Positions 1 through 64,000 of a DNA stretch of 64,000 nt are shown here, one piece after another. The DNA is taken from IMG/VR virus record IMGVR_UViG_3300040733_000035, one strand, 5' to 3'. The DNA comes from an uncultured virus (IMG/VR IMGVR_UViG_3300040733_000035) (lineage: Duplodnaviria > Heunggongvirae > Uroviricota > Caudoviricetes). Numbering within the stretch: position 1 is the first letter of the stretch; each line of letters begins with the position of its first letter. A program made the position numbers and the translations under genes. Below the pieces are notes generated by a model. It ran no database searches and was not told the origin of the DNA. It saw only the letters and a program-made list of their open reading frames with translations.

Positions 1-2
1 TG

Positions 3-653
3 TGGGCGTGTACGGGATCAGGTTGTGTTGCTATGGAAGGAAGCGGTGGAGGCGGTGGGGGCGGTGGAGGCGGCGGGGGTGGAGGATACCAAAGAGCAAC
101 ATACAATGAAGAAACGGAAAATATATTGTATGTAGAATGCAACGTGGAGACAGCCGAAGTATGGAACAAAGACACAGGACTAAAGATAGGAGATGTGAAC
201 ACATCAATAACACTGAAAAAAGGAAAATATACTATACAAGTGAAAGCGAATGGGTATAAATCACGCGAAACTGTAATAGAAATGGGATCATACCCAATAT
301 CAAAGACAATAAATCTAACAGCAATAGGTCCGAGCATATCAACATTCATCAACGGAATAGGAGGAATACAAAATCTAACCAAAACAAAATTCCTATACCT
401 ATTCTGTGTGTGGAAAATGCGAATAACATCATTGTATGCTTGGAAACAATTTGCTGAAACCATAGATACTATAGACGCAAAAGCATTCCCAACACTAATA
501 ACAGCAGATGATGTATTGTATATTTATTATCTGGTAAACAGGGATGTGTCATCGGCACAGGCATTAGTAGACAACGGAAAAGTAACGTTGTTAGATTCAA
601 CTGGAAGCAATGATAGAGAACAAATAACAACTGTGCCAATCGGAGGTGGATAA
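3..653 (+). CDS. PEGA-domain protein with poly-Gly linker, 5'-truncated; putative virion/surface protein
   Basis: Frame is open from the window start (WACTGSGCVAM...). Gly run, then PEGA-like TSITLKKGKYTIQVKANGYKS. Confidence 0.65.
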   Translation, partial: WACTGSGCVAMEGSGGGGGGGGGGGGGGYQRATYNEETENILYVECNVETAEVWNKDTGLKIGDVNTSITLKKGKYTIQVKANGYKSRETVIEMGSYPISKTINLTAIGPSISTFINGIGGIQNLTKTKFLYLFCVWKMRITSLYAWKQFAETIDTIDAKAFPTLITADDVLYIYYLVNRDVSSAQALVDNGKVTLLDSTGSNDREQITTVPIGGG

Positions 654-655
654 GA

Positions 656-1399
656 ATGGCGATACTAGAAACAAGGAAAAAAACACTAGCAGAGGCGTTT
701 GGGACGGATGGATGTATAAACAGCACTAGCTGGATGGCAGCGACGTTGCAGGATATAAATGGAGTATTTAGAATATATCCAGACGACATAATTTTTTTGT
801 ACAACGGAGATTACTGCATAGAAAAGGACGAAACGCCTACGAAAGTGATAATAAGAGAATACAACGGAGTAAGCGCAGACATAACAGTAAACGGAGAACT
901 CATAGGAACAACAAATACATTCATAGAAATTGAACCAGGAGATTACAATGGAATAGTGTCAAAGGATGGATACACATCACAAGAAATAGCATTCATCGTG
1001 ACAAAAGGAAAAACAAATGAGTATAAATATGTGACATTGGTGAAAGATACACAACCAACAGAAGAAGAAAACGAGTACGAAACACCAGTTGGATTTGGAG
1101 CAATAATCACGCCAACGATGAGAATAATACAAGGACAACCACCAAAGATAGAAATTGGAAAATATATATGGTTTGGATGGGAATTTAAAAACACAGGAGA
1201 CGCAGATTGGAAAGGGAAAGTTGGAGTAAAGTTAGTGGATTCCAATGGGAACATATTTCAGTACCCAGGAGATGAAACAAAACTACAAACAATAAAGGCG
1301 GGTGAAATAAAAACACTCTGGTCATATTGTATGATAGAGAACACAATAACACCAGACGAAAATACAAAAGTATTCGCATTATTAACAAAAACGAATTAA
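656..1399 (+). CDS. PEGA domain plus C-terminal Ig-like (CARDB-like) domain protein
   Basis: ADITVNGELIGTT...IEPGDYNGIVSKDGY (PEGA-like); FGWEFKNTGDADWKG (Ig-like). Confidence 0.65.
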   Translation: MAILETRKKTLAEAFGTDGCINSTSWMAATLQDINGVFRIYPDDIIFLYNGDYCIEKDETPTKVIIREYNGVSADITVNGELIGTTNTFIEIEPGDYNGIVSKDGYTSQEIAFIVTKGKTNEYKYVTLVKDTQPTEEENEYETPVGFGAIITPTMRIIQGQPPKIEIGKYIWFGWEFKNTGDADWKGKVGVKLVDSNGNIFQYPGDETKLQTIKAGEIKTLWSYCMIENTITPDENTKVFALLTKTN

Positions 1400-2731: not shown

Positions 2732-5707
2732 ATGCGCAATAAAGATAACGAGTCCAAGGTATTTAAAAATAACGGTAAAATTACAATACCAAAGCAACTA
2801 AGAGAATATGAAGGCGCAAGATTCATTTTAATAGACAGATTGATAGGAAAAGGAAAAAAACCAAAACAGAAGAAATGGACAACCGAGAAAAACTACTCAG
2901 CAAATGATCCGATTCTGACTGGTTACATTAGAGGAGGAGGAAACTATGGAATAGCAACCGGATTTGGATGGCTACACTGTTTTGATGCAGATGAAGTGAA
3001 AAGGCTGAGAGAATTGTGTATTCTAGACAAACTGCCAAAAACACTGACAATAGAAACAGGTGGAAAAGGAGATTATGGGGAAGAACTTGGAAGACATTAC
3101 TGGTACATGATTGAAGGACTTAGAAAAAGAATAACATTTTACGACCCAGAACTAAAAGACAAAGACAACGACACCGAATTTCTGCACTTAGGAGAAGTGC
3201 AGTCGATGGGAAACTATGCGATAGGACCAAACAGTTTACACTACTCAGGAAAAAGATACAAAATAATAGACAATTCACCAATAGCAAAATTATCATATCA
3301 AGAATTGATAGAAATATTAAAACCACTGAGAACAAAGAAAAAAGATGACAGACCAACCGGAGTAACGAGAGAAGGAAAAATATGCAATCTACAAGATGAC
3401 ATCGACATAAGCAAAATAGGATGGCCACGCGGGAACGTGGAAAAACTTAGCGATGGAAATTACAGAGGAACACACCCATTTCACGATTCAAAAAACGGAA
3501 GGAATTTTTCAATCCACCCCAGCAAAGGAGTGTGGTATTGTTTCAAACACGACTCTGGAGGTGGGTGGAAAGAACTTCTGGCTGTGAAAGAAGGAATAAT
3601 ATCATGTGAACATGCCGGAAAGGGGTGTTTATCGAGACAACAAACCCGAGAAGTAATGCAAAAAGCAGAACAGATGGGTTTGCTGGAAGAAAAAGAAACA
3701 ATTGATGCACCAATCGCCGAGATTGAACTTGATAGAGAAATCGTAGACAAAATACCACGGAAAATACCAAACGGAGATCTAGTTGTACTGATGGCACCAC
3801 CAAGGACAGGAAAAACTCACACAGTGGTGCAATGGCTGGCTGACAATGGTTCAGGAAATTACATCACACACACACATGCAATAGTAGAACACGCAATTAA
3901 AATCGCAAAAGAATTAAGGATGAAAGGCGGCGTGTGGGTAATAGGAATGAATCAAAAAGATGCATGCGTGCGACATGGAGAAAGAAGATGTGCAGAATGT
4001 CCATTGAAGCATGGACCAGAAAACCATTTACAAATGAAAAAAGAAGCAACGGAATTGTTGAAAGAGCATGGAATATTGACAGCAAAAGACATTCCACGCA
4101 ACTTGTGTCCATACTACACACTAAAAATTGCTGAGGAGAGCGCGCGGTATTGTTTCACCGTGGTAAATAACATAAATAACATAATGCCAAGAAACTTAAC
4201 AATATTGGACGAAGAACCAGTTTTGTCACATTTTTATGCGACTTCAATGAAAATAGGAACAATAAAAATGCGAGCGGGAGAAACATCAACCAAAAACTTC
4301 ATAGCAAAATCAATGGATTTGCAAAACGAATTGGATAGAATATTAAATCACAGGAAAAAACCGGCTCTACACGAATACGCACTAAAAATACAAGAAATAT
4401 CGAGAATGTGGGACCACTGCGTTGATGACGGAATCGATATAAAGGACATAGCAAGCGAAATAGAAGATCTGCTGATAGATTTTAACCCGAAACACAGAGA
4501 AGTGAAAATAGAAGGAGAAACGAGCGACGGTGACGAGTTGTCACTAGAAACGTGTGTGCGGTGCCTGGGAAAACTATACAGAGATGAAAAAAATCCAACC
4601 GTGGCTATATGCAACGAACCCGGTGGATACCGGTCATTGTACATATTAGGAGACGAACGAAAAACAAGTTGCTCAATGGGATGGAAAGAAAAAACTAAAA
4701 AGATAATTGTAATCGGAGCAACGAAGGCTGAGATTTTCGCAAACGAGTTTGGTGGAAGAGAAATCATAATAGAAAAATTCAGGTACGACGACAGGTTCTT
4801 AGTTCTGGGAGTAGACAAACCAAACATCGGGGATGCAAGGGGAACACGACAGGCCCAAAAGAAAAAGATAATGGAAATCGGAAAAACAATATGGAACAAT
4901 TCGGAAGAAAACCGCAGAATGCCTTTCATGATACTAACAGGATCAAAAAAAGAACAAGAAAAGATAGGGAAATATATAAGTGGAGCGACATTAACACGAA
5001 AAGAACGCGAATCTGGAATGGAATCGGAGTATATATCAGGAAAACCAGTAGTATTTTTCCAGAACTCGGTGATATCGAGAGGACTGGATGTAGATCAATA
5101 CAATCTGCTTTTAGTGTATGGATGCAATTTCGCACAACCTTTCTGGTCGGTGGCCAATCCGGGGATCGCTGCGGCAATAATTTCAGACGAGACAACCAAC
5201 TCAGTGCTACGGATTTCATCGACTTTGAGGACAGATAATCACTCGTTTAAGCTAGTTATAATGCAAAAAGACGACATGCATAAAGTAAAGTATCTAAAGA
5301 ATTTTTTGATAAGAAGTGACGAGGCAGATTTAATAGCAAAGGGACTTCTGGCTATGCGAGTAGGCGGTTTGATAAAAAAAGATGGTAGAAATGTATTACA
5401 GGTAGTACAAAAAGGGATAAATTTCGAGACGGGGAAGGACAATCTACTAAAAACGATGTCAGAAATAGACGAGGTTTTTGACGAGAAAGAAACCGAATCG
5501 ATGATGGCCGCCATTGTGAAACTTTTTGAGACCAAGCGAAAAGCAGGAATTAAGGTACTAAACAGCACGAAAGTCTACAAGGCGATGAAAAACGCAAGCA
5601 GCGAGCAATTAGTAAGAGCCGCGTTACAAGAGTTGCATTTCAAGAAGATCTTGGTAATGGAAACACATGGAAAAGCGAAAAAATGGTCTTTGAGTCGAAT
5701 TCATTGA
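2732..5707 (+). CDS. primase-polymerase (Prim-Pol) fused to a Zn-binding domain and a helicase-like ATPase
   Basis: N-term GKKP..W / NYGIATG / CFDAD / T.G...RHYWY / NYAIGPNS.H. Zn-finger HPFHD...WYCFKH. Walker A APPRTGKT, Walker B ILDEE, SF2-like SRGLDVD. Confidence 0.8.
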   Translation: MRNKDNESKVFKNNGKITIPKQLREYEGARFILIDRLIGKGKKPKQKKWTTEKNYSANDPILTGYIRGGGNYGIATGFGWLHCFDADEVKRLRELCILDKLPKTLTIETGGKGDYGEELGRHYWYMIEGLRKRITFYDPELKDKDNDTEFLHLGEVQSMGNYAIGPNSLHYSGKRYKIIDNSPIAKLSYQELIEILKPLRTKKKDDRPTGVTREGKICNLQDDIDISKIGWPRGNVEKLSDGNYRGTHPFHDSKNGRNFSIHPSKGVWYCFKHDSGGGWKELLAVKEGIISCEHAGKGCLSRQQTREVMQKAEQMGLLEEKETIDAPIAEIELDREIVDKIPRKIPNGDLVVLMAPPRTGKTHTVVQWLADNGSGNYITHTHAIVEHAIKIAKELRMKGGVWVIGMNQKDACVRHGERRCAECPLKHGPENHLQMKKEATELLKEHGILTAKDIPRNLCPYYTLKIAEESARYCFTVVNNINNIMPRNLTILDEEPVLSHFYATSMKIGTIKMRAGETSTKNFIAKSMDLQNELDRILNHRKKPALHEYALKIQEISRMWDHCVDDGIDIKDIASEIEDLLIDFNPKHREVKIEGETSDGDELSLETCVRCLGKLYRDEKNPTVAICNEPGGYRSLYILGDERKTSCSMGWKEKTKKIIVIGATKAEIFANEFGGREIIIEKFRYDDRFLVLGVDKPNIGDARGTRQAQKKKIMEIGKTIWNNSEENRRMPFMILTGSKKEQEKIGKYISGATLTRKERESGMESEYISGKPVVFFQNSVISRGLDVDQYNLLLVYGCNFAQPFWSVANPGIAAAIISDETTNSVLRISSTLRTDNHSFKLVIMQKDDMHKVKYLKNFLIRSDEADLIAKGLLAMRVGGLIKKDGRNVLQVVQKGINFETGKDNLLKTMSEIDEVFDEKETESMMAAIVKLFETKRKAGIKVLNSTKVYKAMKNASSEQLVRAALQELHFKKILVMETHGKAKKWSLSRIH

Positions 5708-5788: not shown

Positions 5789-5929
5789 TATGGCGCCGAT
5801 AGCGATTCGATTTTGTGGGGTCGCTTGATGATTATATATTAAACGAATTCGGCAACTTTATGTATATATAAGGATAAATTAGGGCTAAACTGCTATGCAG
5901 CGACCCGTTTTATGGCGCCGATAGCGATT
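5789..5929. repeat. 19-bp direct repeat TATGGCGCCGATAGCGATT x2 (5789-5807, 5911-5929) with nested inverted repeat GGGTCGCT/AGCGACCC
   Basis: Read directly. The copies flank an AT-rich core directly downstream of the primase-helicase. Confidence 0.8.
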
Positions 5930-6041
5930 TCAAAATCCAATCGACTTACTAAAAAATCACCCAAACCATCGCTCCTGTTGCGGAATATGAGGTATGGACC
6001 GGAGGATGAGGTATGGTGAAACACAGTTTTAAATAGATTGT

Positions 6042-6329: not shown

Positions 6330-7066
6330 TATCGCAGTGATAGCATAATTTTTTATTGCGAGAATTTTGTTTTTTGCATTTTTTGTTGTTTTAATTTTTT
6401 ATTTTTTTTTTGTTTTTTGTCGCTGGAAATGTGTTTTTTCGTGGTTGCTATAATAGGGGAGGGGAGAGAGAAAAGAGAAAGAAGAAAGTAAGAAGGAAGA
6501 GAGAGATGTAGATAGGAGAGAAATAGGAGATAAAAGGAGAAGATAGGAGTGTGAAGTGTAGGTGATGAGGTTAGAATAGGAGGAGATAGCATGTGAATGA
6601 TAACGAGCTGCGATGGTTTAGTGAAAACTTGTGAAAAAATGAAGGAGATGAGTTGAGATGAGCAATAATAAAGAGGATTTACTGGACAAACTGTGTGATA
6701 CACTGGTATGGATAGCAATTGTGTTAGTGTTGATCAACGTAGGTAATTTTTTAGTGATTGTAGCAGCATTGGTACGCGCGTTGATTGACTTGCTATAGAT
6801 GAATGCAAAACACCGGATTTCGTGAATTGTAAAGGAGATGTATTTGAGATGAGTGACAGTTGGAACTATGGAGATTGGTTTGTATATGGTGGAATAAGTG
6901 CAGTCATGGCTGAGTATGTACTGATCAGTGTATGTGCAGTTAGAGGAGTGATTTAATATATGGGAAACGTTTTGATGAAATATGTGAAATAATACATTGT
7001 TTGATGTTTGCAGTTTTACTGATAGCGTATGCACTTGAAGTATGTGCGAGGTTGTAGTGAGTTGCC

Positions 7067-7255
7067 ATGAATGCAAAACGCAGAGGACGCAAGAACGCAT
7101 CAAAGCATGCGAATGTTGTGAGATTTAAACGTGCTAAAGGCATGATAAGCCACCGGGAAGCCGAGTTGTCAAGGGTGACGATGGAGTTTAAACCGGAGAA
7201 AAGAGAGGTGGTACACTCGGTTACATTGGTAGACCACGTTAAACGCCCTTTATAG
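7067..7255 (+). CDS. small basic hypothetical protein (may instead be part of a structured RNA)
   Basis: 62-aa ORF that overlaps potential base-paired segments. Confidence 0.3.
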   Translation: MNAKRRGRKNASKHANVVRFKRAKGMISHREAELSRVTMEFKPEKREVVHSVTLVDHVKRPL

Positions 7256-7450
7256 GCCCGTCCAGGCACTCCCTCACAAGAGCGTCCCAACGATCGAAAC
7301 CTGGGACGAAAGTGCCAGGGCTGGCAGATAGGCAGGCATCCTGGGTGGATCATACCCGGGGTGTCAGTGATCAAACCAAGGAACTCCCTGGGGAACGAAA
7401 GGTCGGAAGTGAGAAATCAAGGAGGCGAGTGACCTATAATAGCCACCAGA
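7251..7450 (+). ncRNA. candidate structured non-coding RNA
   Basis: Nested stems GGCACT/AGTGCC and CGTCCCA/TGGGACG, plus a 12-bp stem 7335-7346/7354-7365 with three G-U pairs. GC-rich; T10 run at ~7489-7498. Confidence 0.5.
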
Positions 7451-7652: not shown

Positions 7653-7736
7653 AAACCTCGCCCTTTCTTCAAGCCTTCGGCCTCTGCGGAGGCTTCTGTG
7701 CCTACGGCACACGAAGGCATGAAGAGGGCGAGGTTT
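7653..7736. repeat. branched (T-shaped) palindrome
   Basis: Outer stems AAACCTCGCCCT/AGGGCGAGGTTT, CTTCA/TGAAG and GCCTTCG/CGAAGGC close two inner hairpins, GCCTC-tgcg-GAGGC and TGTGCC-tac-GGCACA. Confidence 0.85.
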
Positions 7737-10157: not shown

Positions 10158-11296
10158 CACACGAGGGGTTAAAAATGGAACACATAGACTTAACAAATGA
10201 ACCATTAACAATAAATGTTTCAAAAGACAGAGAATTTGATGAAAAATTCCTGGGAAACGCAGTAGAACATCTATTAGAAATCAGAAACAACGCAAAAGAT
10301 TACATAACATCAGCAAAAAATCTGATGATAGAAAAAACAGACAACAAATCATGGGAATTATGGATAGAATCAGAAGACGAAATGAGAATCTTCAAACCAA
10401 CGCCATGGGCATTACAACAAACAATAAGATTAACAGAATTACCAAAAAAATACCACGATACATTGATTGAAAAAAATCACATAGAAGAAGCAGTGAGTCA
10501 CTTGAACATGTGGCTAAACGAAGGACCGAATAGGAGAATAAGAACAGTAGGTGACACATACAGAGCAATAGTATCACCAGGATACAACCCATTCGACAAT
10601 TACGATGCTTTTGTAACAATTGCTCAAACAATAAAAACAGCAAATTCAATGCGAATGCCAACAGAAAAACCAATAAAATTCCACAAAGCACAACTGTCTG
10701 ATCAGAACATGTATATCCAGATCATTGATGAAGGGTCCGAGTGGGACTTAGGACGAGGTGACACATACAAAAAAATGATGATTTTTAAAAACTCGGAAGT
10801 CGGCGACGGAGCAATGATAGTAGAAGCTGCATTGTGGAGATACATGTGTAGAAATCTACAAATACATGGAATCGTTTCACGAAGGATACATAAAGGAGAA
10901 AAATTAGCTGAAGGAATTTTTGCACCAGACACAATGGAAACACAAAACGAATTGTGGAAAAAAATCTTACGAGACTCATTAAACACTGGAATAGCATCAA
11001 ATCAAATGTATGACGAAATCATACATGACATAACAGAATCAAAAGATATCAAAATAGAACCAATCAAAACAATAGAAAAAGTACAGAAAAAACTGAAATT
11101 AACAGACAACGAAAAAAATGCGATAATAAACGCAATGATGGGAGACACGACGATTGCACCAGATGAAAAAAACACACTATTCCAATTAACAAATGGGATG
11201 ACATCAGCGGCTAAAGAAATGGGAATAGAAAGAGGGATTGAAATTCAGAGAATGGCAGGAGACATAAAAACACTAATAAAGGAGGTAGCACAATGA
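10154..11296 (+). CDS. DUF932-like phage/plasmid protein
   Basis: RAIVSPGYNPFDN...NSEVGDGA...RYMCRN...RRIH motifs. Confidence 0.7.
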   Translation: MTHEGLKMEHIDLTNEPLTINVSKDREFDEKFLGNAVEHLLEIRNNAKDYITSAKNLMIEKTDNKSWELWIESEDEMRIFKPTPWALQQTIRLTELPKKYHDTLIEKNHIEEAVSHLNMWLNEGPNRRIRTVGDTYRAIVSPGYNPFDNYDAFVTIAQTIKTANSMRMPTEKPIKFHKAQLSDQNMYIQIIDEGSEWDLGRGDTYKKMMIFKNSEVGDGAMIVEAALWRYMCRNLQIHGIVSRRIHKGEKLAEGIFAPDTMETQNELWKKILRDSLNTGIASNQMYDEIIHDITESKDIKIEPIKTIEKVQKKLKLTDNEKNAIINAMMGDTTIAPDEKNTLFQLTNGMTSAAKEMGIERGIEIQRMAGDIKTLIKEVAQ

Positions 11297-11784: not shown

Positions 11785-12462
11785 ATGCTAACAATATATA
11801 TAAACAAAAAAGACCAGAATAAATATCACGATCAAAATATCATGCTAGACATGTTAACAAAAACAAAACTAAAATTTACAGTAGTTGACTTGAACCAAAT
11901 GGAATTAAACGAAATAAAGAAACTGGCAGAAGAAATAAGGAGAAATAGACAAAAATTTAAACAAATCAATGGAATAGAAAATAAGTGGAACTTCAATGTA
12001 TTGACGTTGCCACCAATAATAAAAACAGATGACAACACATATCCATGGTGGCACATTCGAGAACATATGGATGAAATAATACGGAAAGAAAGAATACGAC
12101 CACAAACAAACAGAGAAACAACCAAACCAAAAAGAGAAACAACCAAACCAAAACTAGAAATAAAAAGAATAAGAAAAAGAAAAACAACAACAAATGAAAT
12201 AGAAATAACATCAAAATCTCTAGCAAGAATAAATGTAACAATGCTGAGATTGATAAATGGAATAGACCCAATTGACATAATGATACATTGGTCAGAAGAA
12301 GAACGCGCATCAGGAATGATAATGTGGAGATTGGCACAGCACTACAAAAAACACGACATGCTAATTTTAGCAGACATGATAAAAAACAAAGCAGAAATGG
12401 CAGATCCATACAGAAAGACACGATGGGTGGGAGATATAAACAATGCAGATTTGGGAATGTGA
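11785..12462 (+). CDS. hypothetical protein with RETTKPK tandem duplication
   Basis: 21-bp perfect tandem repeat at 12112-12153. Confidence 0.6.
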   Translation: MLTIYINKKDQNKYHDQNIMLDMLTKTKLKFTVVDLNQMELNEIKKLAEEIRRNRQKFKQINGIENKWNFNVLTLPPIIKTDDNTYPWWHIREHMDEIIRKERIRPQTNRETTKPKRETTKPKLEIKRIRKRKTTTNEIEITSKSLARINVTMLRLINGIDPIDIMIHWSEEERASGMIMWRLAQHYKKHDMLILADMIKNKAEMADPYRKTRWVGDINNADLGM

Positions 12463-50416: not shown

Positions 50417-51585
50417 TAAAACCTCGAAGCAACAGACGCAGCATCAGTAGACATTTTATGATTACTAAGCAGCTTACTCTCAACAAGAGGGGCAATTATT
50501 CCAGTGACAGTGCCTAGAGCAGACATGCGGCGCTGTTCGCGAAGCATCTCAATTTCAAGCTGCTTCTCTTCTTTGATGAACTGATGATCAAGCTTTTTAT
50601 CCTCACGCAGATTAGCTGCACGTATACGCTCTTGTTCAGGAGTATCAGTGACCACATTAACACCGCCAGCGCGAGCCTGCTCAATCATATCGCGAAGCTG
50701 TGAAATTGGTATTTGGGGAGGACTGCGGGAAATCTCTTCAAGCTGATTAACACGATTCTGTAGAAATTCACGGTCTTTCTCGACTGCCTGTATCTGCAAT
50801 TCAATTATTTTACTCTGAGACTCAGCAATTGCTTTAGCGGCTGCTTCCTGAGACGCGCGATTTTGTTCTTGCATATTCTTAAACAATTCAGAAAACGCAG
50901 CAGTATTTTTATCATTAATTTCTTTAAATGTTTGAACAATATTAGCAACTTCGACCGGTGGATGAGGATTGGAATTAGACATGGGAGGTGTAACGGCACG
51001 TTGTATCTCCATGCCAGCACGAAGCTGATCAACTAACATGGAACTAACACTATTTATGACAGAAATAACGTCATTGGACGAGCTAGTAACAGGTTGCACA
51101 ACAGGAGATGACTGTGATCGACTAATACCAGGGAACGGAAGAGGAGAGGTGGAAAGCAACTCAGGATGATCATCAATAAACTTACGCTTGGCGTCATCAG
51201 ATTCGAAATTTTTAAGGGCAGCATCGAGAATAGAAGCTCTATCAGTAAGAACGGCAGAATTTAATAATCCACCAGGAACCGGAGATGATTGACGAACGAC
51301 ATTAGTAGGTGAAGTAAGTGATGCCAATTTTGCCTCTTCTTCACGTTTTAGTCGCTCACTTTGCAACAACGCAGAATCCATGACATTCTGTTTCAAACGA
51401 CCAAACGCATTACCTATCATCTCTTTTTGGGCAGCTTTGATAACATCATTGGGATCGACCTCAGAAAATGTTATAGACGGGGGAAGACCATCAGACTGTA
51501 TATTATCAGCATCAACAACCTCTTTAGCGACAGAAATGAGAGATTTTTTTGATTCTTTCTTAACAGACTCTGTTTCCTTTGACAT
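50416..51585 (-). CDS. coiled-coil protein (scaffold-like)
   Basis: Heptads and Pro/Ser linkers; heads the - strand operon. Confidence 0.55.
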   Translation of the reverse strand: MSKETESVKKESKKSLISVAKEVVDADNIQSDGLPPSITFSEVDPNDVIKAAQKEMIGNAFGRLKQNVMDSALLQSERLKREEEAKLASLTSPTNVVRQSSPVPGGLLNSAVLTDRASILDAALKNFESDDAKRKFIDDHPELLSTSPLPFPGISRSQSSPVVQPVTSSSNDVISVINSVSSMLVDQLRAGMEIQRAVTPPMSNSNPHPPVEVANIVQTFKEINDKNTAAFSELFKNMQEQNRASQEAAAKAIAESQSKIIELQIQAVEKDREFLQNRVNQLEEISRSPPQIPISQLRDMIEQARAGGVNVVTDTPEQERIRAANLREDKKLDHQFIKEEKQLEIEMLREQRRMSALGTVTGIIAPLVESKLLSNHKMSTDAASVASRF

Positions 51586-54056: not shown

Positions 54057-54076
54057 CGCCTCGCTTAAGCGAGGCG
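54057..54076. terminator. perfect palindrome between convergent genes
   Basis: CGCCTCGC-TTAA-GCGAGGCG. Confidence 0.55.
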
Positions 54077-55285
54077 AGGTATAATCACGACTCTTTTTAT
54101 CTTACCAATTTCAGGGACAACGACTTCTTCTTCAGGAAGATAACCACCATCAATAACAACCCCTATCGTAGAAGAAACACCGACCGGGAGATCAACAGAT
54201 AGAGGAGCAAGCCCAACAACAGATCCATCTATAGATATAATAGACCTGACACCAATTGGAGCAACTTCAATACTGACAGTACCCAACGACACGGGAAGCT
54301 TCTGCAGGATATAAGCAGGCAATTGACGTTTTGTAGACGTTATCTCAATCTCATCTCTGATAGATGAACAACCAGGAGCAGATATAGAAATGAAATACTT
54401 ACCAACCGGCAATTCGATCTCACAAGGAGTAACACCATCATAAAGGCTGATAGAATCATCGATTTTGCCTATACGAACCACTGCATGAGTAGGAGATGAA
54501 ATAATCTTGACGACGCCGATCTGAGGCCAGCTAATAAGGCACTTCTTAGCCGCCTGCTTGAACTCAACAGGATCGACAAAGTGATTCTTACCAAATTTGA
54601 GATTAGGCTCAGTAAAGCACCGCTCAAGTGACCACAGGGCAAAATTAACACCATCGAGATCATAGACAGTGCCAAGAACACGACCATATAAATCATTTGG
54701 TGAATGTCTATCATAATACACAATAACATCCTTACCAAGCCAATGAGGGGAAGTTTCAGCAGCGACCATCTCGCCACGGTCTGTACCGCCTTCCGGAGTA
54801 TCTATGCCAGCAATACGGACCTGATGCTTGAGGGAAACGCCACCATCAAATGTCGGAGACTGCTCGACAATAAGAGTGTCACCATCAGGAACAGCGACAA
54901 CGGTACCAGCAAAACTACGACCAACATCAGTATCATTTTCAGAACCAATAAGCACAGGGCCCGTAAGAGACGGAACTATTATGGTATCTTCAAGATAATC
55001 AAGCTGCATTTGGATATTATCAATTTTGTATGCATAATATTCTGGCTCTTTATCATATAAAGAAGACCGGTTATCCTTTATGAAAGTTTTGAAAATATCA
55101 AAATCCTTAGCCAACGCCAATAAATCCTGTCGGGCAGCGACATACAACGCAGATGGATCAGTGCGGTATTGTTCACTCTCCTTTGCCTGCTTCTGAATCT
55201 TGAGAACACCATCTATACCGCGCAAAAGATCCTGCAATCTCTGTCGGGCCTCGGCAACAACAGATGTACTATACCCAGTAGTCAT
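54065..55285 (-). CDS. thermonuclease (SNase) fused to PEGA domains
   Basis: DGDT, VRIAGIDTPE, DLYGRVLG; SSPTHAVV...GVTP...LPVGKY.ISISAPG. Confidence 0.85.
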   Translation of the reverse strand: MTTGYSTSVVAEARQRLQDLLRGIDGVLKIQKQAKESEQYRTDPSALYVAARQDLLALAKDFDIFKTFIKDNRSSLYDKEPEYYAYKIDNIQMQLDYLEDTIIVPSLTGPVLIGSENDTDVGRSFAGTVVAVPDGDTLIVEQSPTFDGGVSLKHQVRIAGIDTPEGGTDRGEMVAAETSPHWLGKDVIVYYDRHSPNDLYGRVLGTVYDLDGVNFALWSLERCFTEPNLKFGKNHFVDPVEFKQAAKKCLISWPQIGVVKIISSPTHAVVRIGKIDDSISLYDGVTPCEIELPVGKYFISISAPGCSSIRDEIEITSTKRQLPAYILQKLPVSLGTVSIEVAPIGVRSIISIDGSVVGLAPLSVDLPVGVSSTIGVVIDGGYLPEEEVVVPEIGKIKRVVIIPRLA

Positions 55286-55324: not shown

Positions 55325-55423
55325 ATGGACATGAGCAGTAAGATATTGGACGAAATAAGGAAAGCAATCAAAGAAATCAATGAAAAAGCAAACGAAGTAA
55401 TGAAGAAACAGGAGAAAAAATAA
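55325..55423 (+). CDS. 32-aa helical microprotein
   Basis: TAATG coupling to the 1898-aa gene; TATATA upstream. Confidence 0.45.
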   Translation: MDMSSKILDEIRKAIKEINEKANEVMKKQEKK

Positions 55424-58400
55424 TGGCGACAAATCCATTTGGAAAAACTGTATACAATGAACCAACCCAAACAATAACATTCAAGAACACATTTAACACG
55501 AATGCACCGAGGTTTGTTGGGCTGGATGTAAACTATGGAAAAACACAAACTTACAACAACACATACAACACGATAAAACTATCAAACGAAGCAATTGAAG
55601 CGGCACAACGACAACTGGAAACAACGAAAGCTGAAATGATAAAGAACGTAACAAAATCACTAGAATACCTGAAAACAACGTATGACATTAATATAAAGCC
55701 AATCAGCATAAAAACAATTGAAATACAAAACAACACGATAGAAAACGCGAGAAATGAAACAGACTTGATAATACAAGAGGCGATACAAAAAATACAAACA
55801 ATATCAACCGAGGAACTAATAAAAGCAAACACAACGTCAGTAATAACAGAAATAAAAAATGCTGCAATGCGAAGCCTAGAAGCATTACAAACAATGAAAA
55901 ATATATCGATGGAAGATATAAAGAAAGTACAAAACGCAGTGATTGGAGAGATAATATACAAGTTTGCAGGAAATGATGCAGAAACAACATTGCTCAGTGT
56001 AAAAGATATAAACAATACTAAAATACTAAAAGAATGGCTAATCGAGAATAACAAAATAACAGAACAAGAACTACAGACAGTAGACGCGATAGATATCAAA
56101 AACACAGTGACAAAAAACAGCGAAATGGTATTTATAATGGACGATATCAAAAAAGACGCGAAAATGTTGAAATGGTTAGAGGACAGAGGATACATAACTG
56201 ATGTTGAATTAATTAGCGGAAAATTGGTAACAAAGAAAACTGTAGACGGAAAAACGGCGTTCGAATCAATAATGGAATACAATAAAGAAAACAAAACAAC
56301 ATACGAACCAAAACAGATACTAGCAGAAGCGCCTGTGGGATGGGACACGCCGGTAACAAAGAAACAGACAACATGGAGACAAACAGAAAACAAAACAATA
56401 AAATTCGACGAACCTATACAATTGAAAGACTCTCAGATAAAGACAACACAACCAACACAGGATAAAGACGGAAAATTCATAGTGGAAACAATAGACACAA
56501 ATGGAAAGCTACTGAGAGAAAAATACGCAACGGAATCAGATGCAAGAGCACGAATGAATTACCTGATAGAAAACAACCAAGAAATAACAAAAACACTGAA
56601 AGAAATTGTGCCTGAAAAAACATCAGTGCAATCGTATGCAATACTAAAGAGATATAACCAGGACGGAGAAAAAATAAGCGATGACATACGTATAGGAGCA
56701 AGAGGAGCAACAGTAGAGGAGACGGAAAGACAATTGAAATATGAGATAGAAAGACAACAACAACTAGACGAACGAAAAGGAATAACAATAAAATCATACG
56801 AAATCCAGAACCACGACAGCGGAAAGACAAAAGAGATAACCATATTATCAATTGGAGGAACTGAAACAAAAATGCATGTGACAGAAAAAATAATACCAGA
56901 AGTAAAACAATCAATGACGGGAGCAGGAGAATTGCTATACACTGAGCAAAAACAAAAAGAAATGGAAGAAAACAAAAAATTACAAGAAGCATTAAATTCA
57001 ATAAATGCGAGCTTAATGCCAAATGGAAAAGGAATTTCAATTTCGGCACAATCACTCCAATTAGGAAACGTGCAAATAGAAAATGGAAAAATATCAGTAA
57101 ACGGAAAAGAATATTACACAAAAACAATACCAAAATCATACGAAGTGACAGACTGGACAAAAACAATGAAAAATATGGAATCAAATGCACCAGATTTACT
57201 AAAACCAGTCGCATCTACAATATATTCACTGTTCGCAGGAACTACTCAGAAATTATCAAACAATGGATTAGTAAAAGAGACATACACACAAGGAGAATAT
57301 ACAAACGATTGGTCGTTATTCAAAGTAATGTCATTCTGGGGAAGAGAATTGCAATCTGGAACGGCTGCAGTATTATATGGAAACAAAACAATAGACGCCG
57401 ATACCGCCTGGACTGGAAATTACAACGTGGAAATAACAACAAAAGGACAACAATTCATAGATAATGTCGGAATGAACTGGGCAAACAACGGAAAAGTAAC
57501 GAATTCGATAGGACTATCAGATAAAGAAGCAAAAATAAGTGTACTGGAATACGCAAGCCCGAACGTTTTAAACAACATACAGCAAAAACAATCAAAAGAT
57601 CTGGCAATCATGGCATACAACCCAACAACAAAAACAGCATTAATAGACGCATACGGATCAACGACAGTGAATAACATAATAAATTCAAACAAACTAACAC
57701 AACGGGATATAGAAAATGTAAACACAGACGTTGTATTAACCGTGTGGAATGCAATTACAGACCAACGAATAACAGGAACACCACTAGACCCATTTATAAC
57801 GATACTAGGAGGAGGCATTTTAGGTATAGAGGGAAATGTTATTGGAAAGGTAGGAAAAGTAACTGCAAAAGTAGGGGCAGTTAAAGACTTCGCAACATTC
57901 ATCAAAGAAGCAAAAATAGTAGTGCCAACGACAACGGGAATAACAACGATAACAGATGTAATATCAAACACTGCACTTGGTTCATTGAAGATAGCACCGA
58001 CTGCAATAATACCAAACAGCGGTGTAATAGCAAAAGACATCATATCACCAAAGACAATATCAGAAGCAACGAAATTAAAAACAGAAATAACAGAACTGAG
58101 AAAATCACTGGACAAAGGAATAACAAACACACAGAATTCAGAAGAATTTGTGACAAAACTACTAAACACAGACACAAACACGGCGAGGGCAGCACTAACA
58201 GAATTCATAGCAACTACACCAAACGATGTGTATGGAGTAATAAGCAAGGGAACATACAACATATTGCCAGAAAATGCACTGAGAGCACAAAATTTGCTAG
58301 AATCAGCAAACACTGAATACAAAGCACTATCAAATGCAGTAATAGAGAATATAGTAATAAAATCAAACGGGAACACAGTAGAAGCTGCAAAACTACTACA

Positions 58401-61119
58401 ACAAAAGAGCAATGAACTGGGAAAAGACACAGTAAACTACATGATAAACACAGCACAACACGAGGGAACAAAATATTACAACGAAATAACAAACGCAGTG
58501 AATGAGTGGGAAAAATTAGAAAATGCAGGAAAAATAACAATAGCAACACAACAACCGCCGAACGGAACACAAATAACAAGTGTATTCTCGACAGCAGAAA
58601 CAAGTAAGATAGAAAATGAAATCGGAACACTTGAAAACTTGAGAAGCTTATCAGCAAGCGATAAAAAAATATTATCGGATAAAACAGGAATACCAATAAA
58701 CAGAATAACATACCACCAAAAACGAGCAGAAACTTATTTGGCATCATTTAAACCAAAAGAACAGACTGGGTGGATATCCGGTAACGTGGAAGTAGACAGA
58801 TTAACAGACATTGTAAACGCAGCAGAACGAAATACAATAGACGTAATAAGAGACACAACGAAACTATCGAGGAATGGAATAGAAACACTAAAAGATGTGG
58901 CAAGCATAAAACCGAATGAAATAACACTGATTGCAAAGAAAACCGGAATAGATGAAACTGCACTAAAATTGTACAGAGAAGAAGCTTCAAATGCTATAAT
59001 GTGGAAAGAAAACGAAGAAACACTAAAAGATATGGGATGGAAAATAGAATCTCCAACAAAGAAAGGAGAAGACACATTCGAAGAGACGATACTACCAGAA
59101 ACAGACGAGATAATTGTCTCAGATGAACTGAAGTTGCTCGGAATTGAAAGTGATGGAATAGGTGGATGGAAGATAACAGATGCTAACATAAAAGAAATGA
59201 GCAACAAAGAATTTAATAGATTGATATACAGGGATCGAGACAAATTTGCACCAGTAATCGGAAAGATAACAAAAGAAGACATAAACAAACTAGACATAAC
59301 AAGAACACAAAAAGACAGACTGATAAGTGCACTTACAACGAAAAAAACAAACATAGCAGATACAACAAAGATAACAGAAATGAAAAGAAGACTGGAAAAC
59401 GAGACAAACGTACTAGCAGATCTAATGGACGAATATGCACAAAAAAGCAAACAAAAAGGAAATACAAGTGAACTTGAAAAATTATCAAGAGAAATAAACA
59501 AACAACGGGAAGTAGTAAGGGCATTCGACACTGAAATAGGAATACAAAGTGACATACTACGAGAGATGTCAACAAAAATGAAACCATCGGCACAAGAAAT
59601 GAAAATAATTGAAAGACACGCAGAAAACATGAAAAACGAAGTAAAAAGGCAAAACGAACTGATTGAAAGAGTGAAAAACATGCCTGGAAACAGGAAACCA
59701 AGTGAAGCAGCAAAGAACACACTAGACGAAATAAGAAAAGGAAACTTCGAAGAAGCAGCGAATAAATTAAAAGAATCAAATACGCACAGTAAAACAACGT
59801 TACTACCGAATGATGCAAATGCATACAAAGATGTAAGCATTGCAAAAATAAGAAGACTGGAAGAATACGGAGCACCACAGAAATTGGTAGACCAGTTGGT
59901 AGTAGAAAGATCAAATCATGCTCTAAAAGAACTAGCAACAAAACCAGGAATGAAAAGAACAGAATATATGATACGCAATGGGGAAATATCAGAACTAAGT
60001 GACGAAGAAATACTGACATTGTGGAAAAATGAAAGACAACTTGGATTGGATGCAACTGAAGATGTGTACGGAAAAGAACCAAACGGATTATTAAAAAGAT
60101 TAACAGACGACGCAATAAAATCAGGCGATAAATCGAGGATGGAAAAGCTAGCAGAAGAAATGAGAAAAGAAAAAGCAGACTGTGTGCTAAGAGGAGAATG
60201 CGGGATAGGATCAACTGGATCAAGCACAATGAAAACCATGGGAGCAGGACTACTAGTCGCCGGAGCAATGACAACAACGATAACAATGGCAGACGGAACG
60301 ACATGGTTGTACGACGCTGATAAGAACATGTACATGGAAATAGAACCAACAGCAGCAGCAATACGCAATATGGGAGCAACAACACCAGAAAATAAAAATT
60401 ACGCACTGAGAAGCAGCGAACTTGGACCAGAAAGCGTAAACAAAGAAATTGTAAGGGCATTCGATATATACATGAAAAGTGGATTACCAGGAAAACAGTA
60501 CACAGAAGGAAACGTGAAAGGAATACAAGGAACAAAAATAGACACAGGGGAACGGATATGTCAGAATTTCGCAATTGAAGCGGCCAATTACATAAATAAC
60601 AACCAAGAACTATCAAAAATGGGGATAAAAGCAAACGTTATTGGCGTAATTGGAACAGATGTAAACGGAAAAGCGGTGAGTCATGTATTGGTATCAATTG
60701 AAAACATGAACAAACCAGTCGGATCATACACAAATCCAGTAACGGGAAAAACCGAAACATTATACGAGAAAACACTATTAGAACCACAGACGGGGCAAAC
60801 GGGGGAAACTGGAACGGATTTCACCGGAACAAAGATGATGCTAGGTGATAGTGAATATAAAATAGAATACACACAAGCAATGAGAAACGCAGAACAATCG
60901 ATAATATACGGACCGAAAAATGAGAAAGCTGGAATAACACAAGCACCAACGAGGGGAACAGACATGTTGATACACACAGCAGAATCAATGCCACAAGTTG
61001 ACAAGACAATAGAAATCGACAGACTGGCAGGAGCGAACGAAACATATCTAGAAAGTGAAAAAATAAACCCATTTGTAACAATTGACGTAAACACACCAGT
61101 AAAGAGAATAAACGGGTGA
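55423..61119 (+). CDS. 1898-aa protein with a C-terminal transglutaminase/papain-like domain; putative internal virion protein
   Basis: ICQNFA...SHVLV...LLEPQTG (Cys-His-Glu); coiled coils; two weakly hydrophobic Gly-rich segments. Confidence 0.6.
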   Translation: MATNPFGKTVYNEPTQTITFKNTFNTNAPRFVGLDVNYGKTQTYNNTYNTIKLSNEAIEAAQRQLETTKAEMIKNVTKSLEYLKTTYDINIKPISIKTIEIQNNTIENARNETDLIIQEAIQKIQTISTEELIKANTTSVITEIKNAAMRSLEALQTMKNISMEDIKKVQNAVIGEIIYKFAGNDAETTLLSVKDINNTKILKEWLIENNKITEQELQTVDAIDIKNTVTKNSEMVFIMDDIKKDAKMLKWLEDRGYITDVELISGKLVTKKTVDGKTAFESIMEYNKENKTTYEPKQILAEAPVGWDTPVTKKQTTWRQTENKTIKFDEPIQLKDSQIKTTQPTQDKDGKFIVETIDTNGKLLREKYATESDARARMNYLIENNQEITKTLKEIVPEKTSVQSYAILKRYNQDGEKISDDIRIGARGATVEETERQLKYEIERQQQLDERKGITIKSYEIQNHDSGKTKEITILSIGGTETKMHVTEKIIPEVKQSMTGAGELLYTEQKQKEMEENKKLQEALNSINASLMPNGKGISISAQSLQLGNVQIENGKISVNGKEYYTKTIPKSYEVTDWTKTMKNMESNAPDLLKPVASTIYSLFAGTTQKLSNNGLVKETYTQGEYTNDWSLFKVMSFWGRELQSGTAAVLYGNKTIDADTAWTGNYNVEITTKGQQFIDNVGMNWANNGKVTNSIGLSDKEAKISVLEYASPNVLNNIQQKQSKDLAIMAYNPTTKTALIDAYGSTTVNNIINSNKLTQRDIENVNTDVVLTVWNAITDQRITGTPLDPFITILGGGILGIEGNVIGKVGKVTAKVGAVKDFATFIKEAKIVVPTTTGITTITDVISNTALGSLKIAPTAIIPNSGVIAKDIISPKTISEATKLKTEITELRKSLDKGITNTQNSEEFVTKLLNTDTNTARAALTEFIATTPNDVYGVISKGTYNILPENALRAQNLLESANTEYKALSNAVIENIVIKSNGNTVEAAKLLQQKSNELGKDTVNYMINTAQHEGTKYYNEITNAVNEWEKLENAGKITIATQQPPNGTQITSVFSTAETSKIENEIGTLENLRSLSASDKKILSDKTGIPINRITYHQKRAETYLASFKPKEQTGWISGNVEVDRLTDIVNAAERNTIDVIRDTTKLSRNGIETLKDVASIKPNEITLIAKKTGIDETALKLYREEASNAIMWKENEETLKDMGWKIESPTKKGEDTFEETILPETDEIIVSDELKLLGIESDGIGGWKITDANIKEMSNKEFNRLIYRDRDKFAPVIGKITKEDINKLDITRTQKDRLISALTTKKTNIADTTKITEMKRRLENETNVLADLMDEYAQKSKQKGNTSELEKLSREINKQREVVRAFDTEIGIQSDILREMSTKMKPSAQEMKIIERHAENMKNEVKRQNELIERVKNMPGNRKPSEAAKNTLDEIRKGNFEEAANKLKESNTHSKTTLLPNDANAYKDVSIAKIRRLEEYGAPQKLVDQLVVERSNHALKELATKPGMKRTEYMIRNGEISELSDEEILTLWKNERQLGLDATEDVYGKEPNGLLKRLTDDAIKSGDKSRMEKLAEEMRKEKADCVLRGECGIGSTGSSTMKTMGAGLLVAGAMTTTITMADGTTWLYDADKNMYMEIEPTAAAIRNMGATTPENKNYALRSSELGPESVNKEIVRAFDIYMKSGLPGKQYTEGNVKGIQGTKIDTGERICQNFAIEAANYINNNQELSKMGIKANVIGVIGTDVNGKAVSHVLVSIENMNKPVGSYTNPVTGKTETLYEKTLLEPQTGQTGETGTDFTGTKMMLGDSEYKIEYTQAMRNAEQSIIYGPKNEKAGITQAPTRGTDMLIHTAESMPQVDKTIEIDRLAGANETYLESEKINPFVTIDVNTPVKRING

Positions 61120-61124
61120 TAAAA

Positions 61125-63425
61125 ATGACCGGAAAATGCAGTAGTTTGGACAATTTCGAAAAATCACTGACAGACGCAGCCAGTGAACAAAAACAAACAA
61201 CGGGTAAAACAACGACACAACCAGAAAGGAGAAGTAATATAGCAACAATGGGGAAAAATAAGATTGATGAAATATTAGACCCACTGCGAGAAATGGAAAA
61301 AAGAGCAGCGAAAAATATAGACGACCCGGAAGAAACAGCAGCAATTGCAAAGGAAAAACAAGAGTACGGAGGTGACACGAAGCCAGGATCACCGGGAATG
61401 AGACTGAACGCCGCAATGGGTGATGCACAGGTTAAAGAATATCTAAAAACAGTGTCGACAAATGAATACTCTAAAATGTATTCAGATATACAGGGATGGT
61501 TCGGTGGAGAATATGGGACACAAGGAGCAATGGGAAGACAACTTGAGAAAGCATACAAAAATGCAAGAGTGGAAAAACTCGGAGAATATTTGCCAGATAC
61601 TGGAATGGGAAAAATATTAAAAGCAAAAACAAACGGAATCGCAGGACGAGGATTCATACAAGACGGCGATTTGAAATTCTTCGATGCAGCAGATACGGCG
61701 ATAGAAAAGATGGACGGAATAGTAAGCGGGAATGCTAGGAAAACATACAACGAATTGAAAAACGGACTTGGAAGGGAAACAACCGACGAATTGTTTAGTG
61801 AAAAGATAGCAGAAAACATACAAACACTTAGAAAACTATTACCGGACAACACATTCGCAGACAAGATGATAAAAAAATCACTGACAAGCGACGAAATGAA
61901 AGTGTTAAAGGAAATAGAATCAGGAAAACGGCCAATGGATGCAACATCATTTGAAGTAATAAACAAAATGATAGAAAAAATATCGGACGATGGATGGAAC
62001 GAAATAAATAAGATAACATCACCATTGGACGAACTGGACACAACCACGAAATCACAAATACAAGCAAGAGGATGGACAAAGGCAAACAAAACAATTGCAG
62101 GACTCGGTGTAGCAGGAAGCGCGATATGGATAACAACGGTAACAATACCAGACAAACTAAACAATTGGGGGCAATTCGGATTGACAAATTCCGCAGAAAT
62201 GTCAACATTGTTCGGGCAATTCGACAAGGACACGACTGCGGAGAGATTGTTACAACTGTGGTTTCCAACGGAGAAAAGAAAAGAGGCAATGGAATTGTGG
62301 TTAGACTCGGCGAAATATTACATTGGAATAATGGAAGCAGTATACAAAATACCAATATATGGTGAATGGTTGAAAGGAACAACATTTGTGGGATACTCAT
62401 CGGCAGTATCATCACTCGGAAATCTAGACACAATAATGACAGCATTAGAAAACAGAGGACTAGCAACAAGAGACGAAACAACAAAGTCGGGGTGGAGAGA
62501 AACAACAGAACAAGAAAGAAAGAACATATATGGAAAAAACGCAGAAAAACTATTCTCAAATGACGCCGAATGGGTAAACAAATATTTAAATGAAAAAAAG
62601 ACAAATGTATACAAATCTGGTAAAAGCGGAAAAGAATTAACAGAAGCACAAGCAATGGCACTGTACTACGCCGAAAATGGAATGGCAGTGAAACTGTCAG
62701 ATTTCGGATTGACAGCGAGCGACTTAAACGATGAATCACTGATGATAGCAGTAAGAAAGTATGGAGAAAACAGGGACACATCGAAAAAAAGTGAAAGCGA
62801 ATCAAAATATTCACTAAACGAATTGACAAACATGGGACTAACATGTAATATGGGAAACACATGCACACAAGAAGATTATTCGAAAAACATAGCAAATGGA
62901 TGGTTCGTGTATAAAGATAAAAACACAGGTTTAGCAACGTGGGGGCAACCAGGAGATAATGTGGGAAACGTCGAGATACTAGAAAAAGGAATGCGAGACA
63001 CCGTGGGATCAGGATTAACAGGAACAATTGGATCAGGGGGAAACGGAGGAACGGGAGGAGGAGAAATATATGCACGAAAAACAGACACTGCAGATAGCAG
63101 CAAAAAGACAAGAGCAAACCCAACAGTGTCACAACAACAATCGCTAGACCAAGTAAAAAACAATGAAAAAACACTAAGTTCAAAAGATGTAGATGCACTG
63201 AAGGTAAACGGTGTAGTAGACATAACAACCGCAAAGGAAAATGGAATACCAATACAAAATTTGGCTGCAATCGACAGAGAAGCAACCGTAGGTGGATTTA
63301 AAACATACGCAGTAGATATGAAAAACACCAATAAAATAGACAAAAGCGATTACGAAGCAATGAAAAAAGAAGACGCTGCAGCAACAAGAGCTGCAATAAG
63401 AAGCGCATACGGATGTGATCAGTAA
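61125..63425 (+). CDS. large hypothetical protein with a central hydrophobic segment
   Basis: SD GGTGA; IAGLGVAGSAIWITTV. Confidence 0.6.
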   Translation: MTGKCSSLDNFEKSLTDAASEQKQTTGKTTTQPERRSNIATMGKNKIDEILDPLREMEKRAAKNIDDPEETAAIAKEKQEYGGDTKPGSPGMRLNAAMGDAQVKEYLKTVSTNEYSKMYSDIQGWFGGEYGTQGAMGRQLEKAYKNARVEKLGEYLPDTGMGKILKAKTNGIAGRGFIQDGDLKFFDAADTAIEKMDGIVSGNARKTYNELKNGLGRETTDELFSEKIAENIQTLRKLLPDNTFADKMIKKSLTSDEMKVLKEIESGKRPMDATSFEVINKMIEKISDDGWNEINKITSPLDELDTTTKSQIQARGWTKANKTIAGLGVAGSAIWITTVTIPDKLNNWGQFGLTNSAEMSTLFGQFDKDTTAERLLQLWFPTEKRKEAMELWLDSAKYYIGIMEAVYKIPIYGEWLKGTTFVGYSSAVSSLGNLDTIMTALENRGLATRDETTKSGWRETTEQERKNIYGKNAEKLFSNDAEWVNKYLNEKKTNVYKSGKSGKELTEAQAMALYYAENGMAVKLSDFGLTASDLNDESLMIAVRKYGENRDTSKKSESESKYSLNELTNMGLTCNMGNTCTQEDYSKNIANGWFVYKDKNTGLATWGQPGDNVGNVEILEKGMRDTVGSGLTGTIGSGGNGGTGGGEIYARKTDTADSSKKTRANPTVSQQQSLDQVKNNEKTLSSKDVDALKVNGVVDITTAKENGIPIQNLAAIDREATVGGFKTYAVDMKNTNKIDKSDYEAMKKEDAAATRAAIRSAYGCDQ

Positions 63426-64000
63426 TGGCGTGTCCAATAACAATGCAACAACAAATTAAAAACGACCTGTTGGCAGGGGGGATGTCAGAAGAGCAGGCAG
63501 AAAGAGAACTGGCAACATTCATAACAACACCAGAAGATATACAACAGGGAATAGTAGATGACAAAACACTCACAAACGTAGTAACAATGAATACGTATGG
63601 AGATCTGAAAAATACAGCAGCATCGAGTATAGCAGAAAAATGGAGTATAAATAAGGTAATAAACAACGGATTACAAAAAGACACAGCAATTGTAAGCGAA
63701 TACACTAAGAAAGGAATAGATATAAAAACTATAGATAATGTGCTGCATGGAAGAGATTGGACAGACATACCAATTGAAGACGGGAAAACCGAAAAAGAAA
63801 CACAGCAAAATGCACAAGATTTGACAGCACTTGTAATGGCTGGACATCCAGAAGCAGTCAAATTCGTGAACGATGTTATAAATGCAGCATTCACAGGAAA
63901 CGAAGACACAAAAAACATGGCAGTGGTGCTTTTAGACATATTAGGAAAAGGAGGGATGACAGAAAAATATGGAACAACAAAACCAACCGGGAGAATAGAA
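63425..64000 (+). CDS. hypothetical protein, 3'-truncated (MACPITMQQQIKNDLLAGG...)
   Basis: Manual translation; open to the window end; TAATG coupling. Confidence 0.7.
   Translation, partial: MACPITMQQQIKNDLLAGGMSEEQAERELATFITTPEDIQQGIVDDKTLTNVVTMNTYGDLKNTAASSIAEKWSINKVINNGLQKDTAIVSEYTKKGIDIKTIDNVLHGRDWTDIPIEDGKTEKETQQNAQDLTALVMAGHPEAVKFVNDVINAAFTGNEDTKNMAVVLLDILGKGGMTEKYGTTKPTGRIE

Follow-up and report, generated by a model that had tools for sequence, protein, structure and literature searches.

What leaves one strand of a virus genome rich in A, and its partner rich in T, whichever way the genes on them point? The question is raised by IMG/VR record IMGVR_UViG_3300040733_000035, an uncultured virus of which 64,000 nt of a 64,458-nt contig (the window) were analyzed. 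One strand was T-rich all round the genome regardless of gene direction. The skew is very probably linked to replication that runs one way. At a probability of about 0.5, this replication is uncoupled and leaves the − strand single-stranded for long in the cell, with a mutational scar as the result. The polarity itself was demonstrated at silent sites round the genome and across the virus family, with C, G and A all being replaced by T on the − strand.

Silent-site polarity and substitution spectrum

Genes were annotated by hand from a list of open reading frames (ORFs), giving 38 on the + strand (63% of coding DNA) and 23 on the − strand (37%). Over the whole window A (25,339) outnumbered T (13,404), for an AT skew of +0.308 and a GC skew of +0.069, and A exceeded T in 32 of 32 non-overlapping 2-kb bins and in 969 of 1066 60-nt lines. 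At four-fold degenerate sites, counted in + strand letters, composition was A.673, C.055, G.174, T.097 in + genes (n=4346) and A.535, C.089, G.219, T.158 in − genes (n=3751), corresponding to A/T skews of +0.75 and +0.54. A exceeded T at these sites in all 61 genes (23/23 on the − strand) and G exceeded C in 56, an accompanying excess that the earlier, sequence-based note on this DNA had overlooked. Overall four-fold composition of the − strand was T 0.60, C 0.20, A 0.13, G 0.07. Partitioning gave AT skew components of 0.646 for the absolute strand (gene bootstrap 0.615–0.675) and 0.103 for the coding strand (0.072–0.131), with GC components of 0.471 and 0.047; silent skew followed the absolute and not the coding strand, as that note had proposed. 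Without three collagen-repeat genes the other 20 − genes kept an AT skew of 0.53, and spacers between − genes had the same sign (+0.23; 958 nt). Two-fold sites on the + strand had A/G ratios of 4.98 (+ genes) and 4.11 (− genes) and T/C ratios of 0.85 and 1.09, the direction expected if the − strand deaminates.

The hand counts behind the original observation were exact (28 A and 7 T at 11101–11160; 28 A and 9 T at 49021–49080), the second line being atypical of − genes: 8 of 337 such lines reached A−T ≥19, with a mean of 5.6. Independence from gene direction held for the sign of the skew (A>T in every gene) and failed for its size (0.397 in + genes vs 0.160 in − genes, all sites). A replication-linked signal of single polarity, with one strand behaving as if long single-stranded, was upheld by the bins and the two-fold ratios.

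The note's amino-acid contrast (K/E/T/N/I higher in + genes, S/V/F in − genes) was also recovered, with gene strand fully confounded with gene class. That confounding, the coding-strand component of 0.10 and spacers less skewed than four-fold sites would suit an origin in transcription or translation, in which early (+) genes favor A-ending and late (−) genes T-ending codons, or mostly one strand is transcribed. This explanation is strongly disfavored and very unlikely. In − genes NAY codons were 77–88% T-ending and NAR codons 39–58% G-ending, with the reverse in + genes, and all four-fold boxes and both two-fold classes mirrored exactly between the two sets; spacers between − genes kept the sign, and S. 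aureus, whose AT skew is explained by selection, has a four-fold AT skew of 0.02 (available part of PMC3174206). Codon shuffling over the coding regions of four genomes also showed GTC and GTT depleted on the + strand (observed/expected 0.78 and 0.87) beyond their complements (0.95 and 1.01).

Relatives were found through alignments; a single-protein scan of viral contigs gave none, and tblastn with the capsid protein and replicase returned zero matches among 50,697 phage records. Three near-complete relatives (G001–G003; capsid identity 64–67%) and a distant one (G004; 67,631 nt, near-complete, terminal repeat, 31% capsid identity) kept the gene order of the window in circular permutation, and homologous capsid genes occurred on contigs of up to 80,133 nt. 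Judged by its order, a circular permutation of that of G001 (69,061 nt; 66-nt terminal repeat), the window is a near-complete, probably circular virus genome. One sequencing run (share 0.05), compared with the window, gave 17 short contigs and zero variants. AT skew was 0.26–0.28 in G001–G003, with every 2-kb bin positive (34/34, 33/33 and 34/34), and 0.20 in G004 (29 of 33 bins). Genes in G001–G003 had been called with a codon model derived from the window, and the result was redone with homology-defined frames: four-fold AT skew (AT4) of − genes was 0.40–0.62 in 14 of 14 related records (the 4 genomes and 10 of 22 metagenome loci, picked for length), and G exceeded C in 13 of the 14. The sign of raw skew was identical in 22 of 22 loci, some of them duplicates. 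Without a sign switch round these genomes a bidirectional origin is disfavored and a single replichore is indicated.

Substitutions were polarized as singletons in three clusters of close relatives, where three-sequence columns can be mis-polarized. Counts in + strand letters were 12/543 for C>A vs 15/2093 for G>T, 14/789 for T>A vs 16/2794 for A>T, and 81/2093 for G>A vs 9/543 for C>T. Three changes on the + strand exceeded their complements 2.3–3.1-fold (p 0.003–0.013): G>A, C>A and T>A, which read on the − strand are C>T, G>T and A>T. At 1268 sites, a model symmetric between the strands fitted far worse than a free one (log likelihood −3767.6 vs −3525.3), largely as a composition effect; pairwise rate fits assume reversibility, and their X>Y/Y>X ratios restate composition. 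A broader statement, that all purine-producing substitutions were raised, was dropped because two-fold sites showed no excess of A>G over T>C. Between two relatives, 1171 four-fold sites differed, 474 of them by transversion. Deamination alone cannot yield the observed spectrum; deamination together with purine loss or oxidation on an unpaired strand can. Purine loss or oxidation read with A opposite (the A-rule) is established chemistry. For ssDNA (single-stranded DNA) geminiviruses, PMC3556111 reports G>T on the virion strand; for ssDNA phages, PMC3278643 reports NNT codons.

Ten hand-picked controls, not a survey, were used for comparison. Absolute-strand AT skew was −0.11 to +0.11 in P2, PM2, AFV1, phi29, NrS-1 and STIV (few − strand sites in PM2 and STIV). 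The four-fold vector of the window's − strand lay at an L1 distance of 0.10 from phiX174, 0.20 from FLiP and 0.58 from the ssDNA virus ACV, and of 0.52–0.91 from seven viruses with double-stranded DNA (dsDNA) as deposited.

Replication genes, candidate origin and mechanism

The candidate replicase (2732–5707, + strand; 991 aa) joins an AEP primase-polymerase, a CHC2 zinc finger, an SF2-like helicase and a C-terminal winged helix. It matched PF09250 and PF01807, carried a Walker A motif at nt 3794 and was present in 4/4 full relatives; DEAD-box C-domain matches were weak (E 0.007–0.03), and the structure model (pLDDT 33.5) was confident only in the C-terminal helix-helix-hairpin part. An iteron-like motif, ATA(G/T)CGATTT, follows in two direct copies at 5799 and 5921 (5799–5930, + strand), which may be where the replicase binds. 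Two such copies lay ≤550 nt past the primase-polymerase stop in 5/5 genomes, with an inverted copy in 4/5.

Beyond them, a T-tract (6349–6447, + strand; ~65% T, ending G/T-rich) forms the outer flank of candidate site S1 (6448–6456, + strand; core CTATAATAG), as it does in G001–G003. The core is mirrored at candidate site S2 (7434–7442, − strand), where the T/G-rich flank is on the − strand (an A/C tract on +, to ~7520). The window, G001 and G002 have exactly 2 copies of CTATAATAG and G003 has 3, with ~1 expected per genome; S2 sits 0.6–1.3 kb beyond S1 in the window and G001–G003, and G004 has degenerate candidates. The short arc between the sites (6457–7433, + strand) is G-rich and C-poor with A about equal to T, and holds a 100-nt homopurine tract followed by small hydrophobic ORFs (6658–6798 and 6849–6956); a homopurine tract and small hydrophobic ORFs also separate the two sites in G001–G003. 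An invertible arc was considered; orientation was identical in 4/4. The largest step from G>C to C>G lay 10–434 nt from S2 in 5/5 genomes, and silent A/G was ~1 or below in the arc vs 3–7 just past S2 (few sites; overlapping starts counted twice). The sign of this step is terminus-like, which would fit synthesis leaving S1 and ending at S2, and the region past the primase-polymerase-helicase gene is a conserved candidate origin/terminus. No fold in the window was stronger than a three-way-junction hairpin at 7653–7736 (z −9.1; −36.1 kcal/mol as DNA; 0/200 shuffles); it could be a single-strand origin, a terminator or a small RNA. Rfam gave 0 matches, here or elsewhere in the window, and multi-hairpins occurred 1.2–2 kb past S2 in G002 and G003.

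Further genes on the + strand were a Cas4-like/PD-(D/E)XK exonuclease (1972–2640; PF01930, E 4e-8; in 4/4 full relatives), a stand-alone NrS-1-like primase-polymerase without helicase domain (12443–13219; 258 aa; PF22763, E 2.5e-19; 33% to the N-part of the NrS-1 primase; in G001–G003, undetected in G004), an SF2 helicase (16352–17809; PF04851, PF00271) and a probable multi-OB-fold ssDNA-binding protein with an acidic tail (13549–14985). The nearest models to the last were archaeal RPA-like clusters at TM scores of 0.45–0.46, below the bar for naming, and its assignment is a lead only. A PolB of 849 aa with an exonuclease domain lies beside the thymidylate synthase gene in G002 (L030:4962-7511) and is also found in G001 and G003; it is absent from the window and G004. 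Skew was kept with or without this PolB, and in G004, where the NrS-1-like primase was undetected; constant across skewed genomes were the primase-polymerase-helicase, the SF2 helicase and the Cas4-like nuclease. Separately, homing-endonuclease-type genes (LAGLIDADG, HNH-AP2, NUMOD3) occurred in G001 and G003 (L026:4489-5532, L027:9082-9597, L027:18810-19940, L034:3622-4380), and a tandem array of a 13-nt GC-rich unit near 44,041 of the reversed G002 record.

One-way uncoupled replication would proceed as follows. The primase-polymerase-helicase would bind the repeats behind its own gene, open the T-tract at S1 and synthesize a new − strand without interruption around the circle. The pre-existing − strand would be displaced, stay single and be coated by the viral ssDNA-binding protein, to be copied later in a separate step, perhaps from S2. 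Unpaired, it would be beyond repair: C would deaminate, G and A would be lost or oxidized and read with A opposite, and all three would end as T. This scheme takes the virion to contain dsDNA.

The A/T bias was uniform along the window (logistic slope 0.01, z 0.1). Displacement geometry predicts damage rising rightward of S2, which was unseen, so the delay before copying must far exceed synthesis time. A linear gradient from S2 was downgraded once genes were split by strand: A vs G followed a positional trend in + genes (gene-clustered z −7) and not in − genes (z 0.2–0.5), and the + gene trend has the wrong sign for the simplest displacement geometry.

Several observations weigh against uncoupled replication as the source of the skew. 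Two-fold A/G was 5–11 in + genes of the first 40% of the window and 3–4 later, and flat in − genes. The ratio of G>A to C>T at two-fold sites was 3.2 in − genes and 1.17 (0.92–1.51) in + genes, and A>G exceeded T>C 2–4-fold at four-fold sites with ratios of 0.39–1.05 at two-fold sites; the transition spectrum is context-dependent. Spacer skew (0.23–0.34) was well below that of four-fold sites (0.54–0.75). GC skew at four-fold sites was near zero in G004, which leaves T over A on the − strand, and T/C above A/G at two-fold sites, as the invariant. Gene strand was switched in no relative, and hence there is no natural inversion test. The ssDNA virus ACV has an AT4 of only −0.16, so that composition is no sure marker of single-strandedness, and the coding-strand complement of AFV1, whose skew follows the coding strand, lay at L1 0.29 from the − strand. 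S1 and S2 could instead be promoters, terminators or packaging sites. The unidirectional strand displacement proposed in the earlier note stands as one of three mechanisms that sequence data cannot separate.

The second mechanism is a unidirectional coupled fork (theta or sigma) whose two strands are made by different enzymes, one being a proofreading-free primase-polymerase that over-inserts dA, or whose errors are corrected on one strand only. A bias without gradient and two AEP enzymes in the window would fit, and PMC4316638 attributes the same purine pattern in the Galdieria mitogenome to a one-way fork, or to a rolling circle, that uses an unusual polymerase. P2 and PM2, dsDNA phages with one-way rolling-circle replication and annotated nick sites, nevertheless had absolute-strand AT skews of −0.11 and +0.07, the skew was the same whether PolB and the NrS-1-like primase had been gained or lost, and codon shuffling brought out no priming word specific to a strand. 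A coupled fork is judged somewhat unlikely.

Capsid, packaging and host

The third mechanism places the damage in the particle, and bears on what the capsid holds. The capsid protein (43407–44645, − strand; model pLDDT 90.7) was a double jelly-roll, superposing on PRD1 P3 (Z 10.3, root-mean-square deviation 4.5, 251 aligned) and on the STIV major capsid protein (Z 9.5, 4.6, 242 aligned). It tied with cellular DUF2961-type hydrolases (Z 10.3–10.6), yet the protein is conserved in virus contigs; a fold search of BFVD yielded no clear match to a named protein. Capsid homologs formed 125 clusters at 50% identity (P0063–P0184) reaching E 0.001, which points to a wider unnamed double jelly-roll group; skew was examined in one distant member, G004.

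A packaging ATPase of FtsK/HerA type was not found in the window and relatives, which are double jelly-roll viruses of 64–69 kb. No conserved Walker A protein beyond two helicases was present in 5 genomes (two closed), and Pox_A32 matched in 0/4. A profile search for ATPases was weak, known ATPases matching each other only at E 0.5–0.8; a Walker-degenerate motor is possible, and conserved unassigned proteins lie at 46266–51585. Double jelly-roll viruses lacking the ATPase are, in the part of PMC5894146 available, the ssDNA phage FLiP and a small Odin group, and skuldviruses do carry one (partial text of bioRxiv 2021.07.29.453957). A rolling-circle initiator gave no Pfam or PHROG match in window ORFs and none in 88 selected relative ORFs, with no conserved HUH motif and no phmmer match to four initiators.

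If the virion packaged the − strand as ssDNA of 63–80 kb, uniform particle damage would become permanent once the + strand is synthesized on entry. The uniform bias would follow, the closest silent-site matches (the phiX174 virion strand and FLiP) would be of the same kind, and the undetected ATPase would be shared with FLiP and the Odin group. PolB, primases and thymidylate synthase, however, are a dsDNA-virus gene set. Coding is split 37%/63% between − and + here, whereas FLiP has 16/16 and ACV 56/57 genes on one strand, the genome is 2.6 times that of ACV (24,893 nt), and the ATPase search was weak. No rolling-circle initiator was found by the searches above, whereas the ssDNA relative phiCjT23 has one (part of PMC9719478 available). 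Such a virion is unlikely, and it is equally doubtful that these are ambisense ssDNA viruses of methanogenic archaea, 63–80 kb long, with a double jelly-roll, no packaging motor or rolling-circle nickase, and a primase-polymerase-helicase working from mirror sites. Were it true, the family would be of record size, ~3 times larger than ACV, with a different replication scheme.

The virus is a tail-less, double jelly-roll virus, probably archaeal. A methanogen is the probable host, as suggested by the thymidylate synthase homolog of archaeal type (17826–18566, + strand; TIGR03283, E 1e-16, under cut-off) and the DUF1699 protein (13257–13547, + strand; PF08004, E 1e-20). Among 90 thymidylate synthase homologs, the 4 carrying a taxon name were all archaeal (Methanophagales, Methanospirareceae twice, Thermoplasmata), and of 14 control genomes Methanosarcina acetivorans alone had a DUF1699 match. 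The sole genome-bin match to the window, a 2.9-kb contig in a Gammaproteobacteria bin, was taken as mis-binning.

Other regions held glycosylation clusters partly common to relatives (20729–23885 and 38533–42871: glycosyltransferases, methyltransferases, a DegT aminotransferase, an NAD-dependent epimerase and a hexapeptide acetyltransferase), several collagen-like Gly-X-Y fiber genes that were the main source of repeats (23877–29151, − strand), and a staphylococcal-nuclease-fold domain fused to PEGA repeats (54065–55285, − strand; in 4/4 relatives). Three large + strand proteins (55423–61119, 61116–63425, and 63425–653 across the contig join; 1898, 769 and ~525 aa) were syntenic and fast-evolving in relatives, and are possible virion core or ejection proteins.

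Whichever mechanism applies, a double jelly-roll family without detected ATPase, probably of methanogen viruses, copies its strands very unequally, with a silent-site bias ~6 times that of the dsDNA controls tested. The system offers a mapped candidate origin and a candidate replicase whose domains are fused in an unusual way, and is a clean example for asking how purine-type strand skews originate; base composition by itself can point to unusual genome states in metagenomic data. Single-polarity skews were already known. In a literature search that left most subscription journals and supplements outside its scope, neither the virus group nor an A/T silent bias of this size in a large archaeal virus, present whichever strand carries the gene, was found described; a methanogen-virus catalogue may describe the group.

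Comparison with known systems

Strand displacement in animal mitochondria produces absolute-strand bias with an excess of C>T on one strand, as in the window, which likewise keeps one sign of silent absolute-strand skew over the entire replicon. Mitochondrial strands are A+C-rich vs G+T-rich, transitions dominate, and a gradient follows the time spent single-stranded. The mitochondria-like pattern suggested in the earlier note was not supported as it stood: here G exceeded C on the A-rich strand, transversions were frequent, and the positional trend was confined to + genes with no clean gradient. G was rarest in the window, below C, on the putative single strand (0.055–0.089 at four-fold sites; near parity only in G004), and the candidate sites lie ~1 kb apart.

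Firmicute purine asymmetry likewise favors A over T and G over C on one strand. It arises from gene orientation and amino-acid selection, according to the part of PMC3174206 available, with a four-fold AT skew of 0.02 against 0.65 on both gene strands of the window.

Archaeal primase-polymerase replicons resemble the candidate origin region. As described in part of PMC2926602, replication genes of such plasmids lie upstream of predicted origins, and in pTN2 and pP12-1 the replication gene sits directly upstream of an intergenic region, the largest, that contains repeats and a break in skew. STIV, MetSV, the Odin group and Skuld viruses share the double jelly-roll capsid. Unlike all of these, the window has its primase-polymerase fused to an SF2-like helicase and a genome several times larger.

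In silent composition phiX174 and FLiP are alike to the window, with T ~0.6 at four-fold sites and T/C above A/G at two-fold sites; FLiP (Finnlakeviridae) adds a double jelly-roll capsid and no packaging ATPase (PMC5894146, in the part available). Both are 5–9 kb long with genes on one strand and a rolling-circle initiator, whereas the present viruses are 64–69 kb and ambisense and carry a primase-polymerase-helicase.

The nearest published case is the Galdieria sulphuraria mitogenome, as presented in the accessible part of PMC4316638. It too has a purine-rich strand round a circle, antisense genes that are not inverted in composition and silent sites with a skew above the average. There GC skew dominates (0.74; AT 0.26) and two genes only are antisense; in the window AT skew dominates (0.31 overall, 0.65 at silent sites), 23 of 61 genes lie on the minority strand, and the replicon is a virus.

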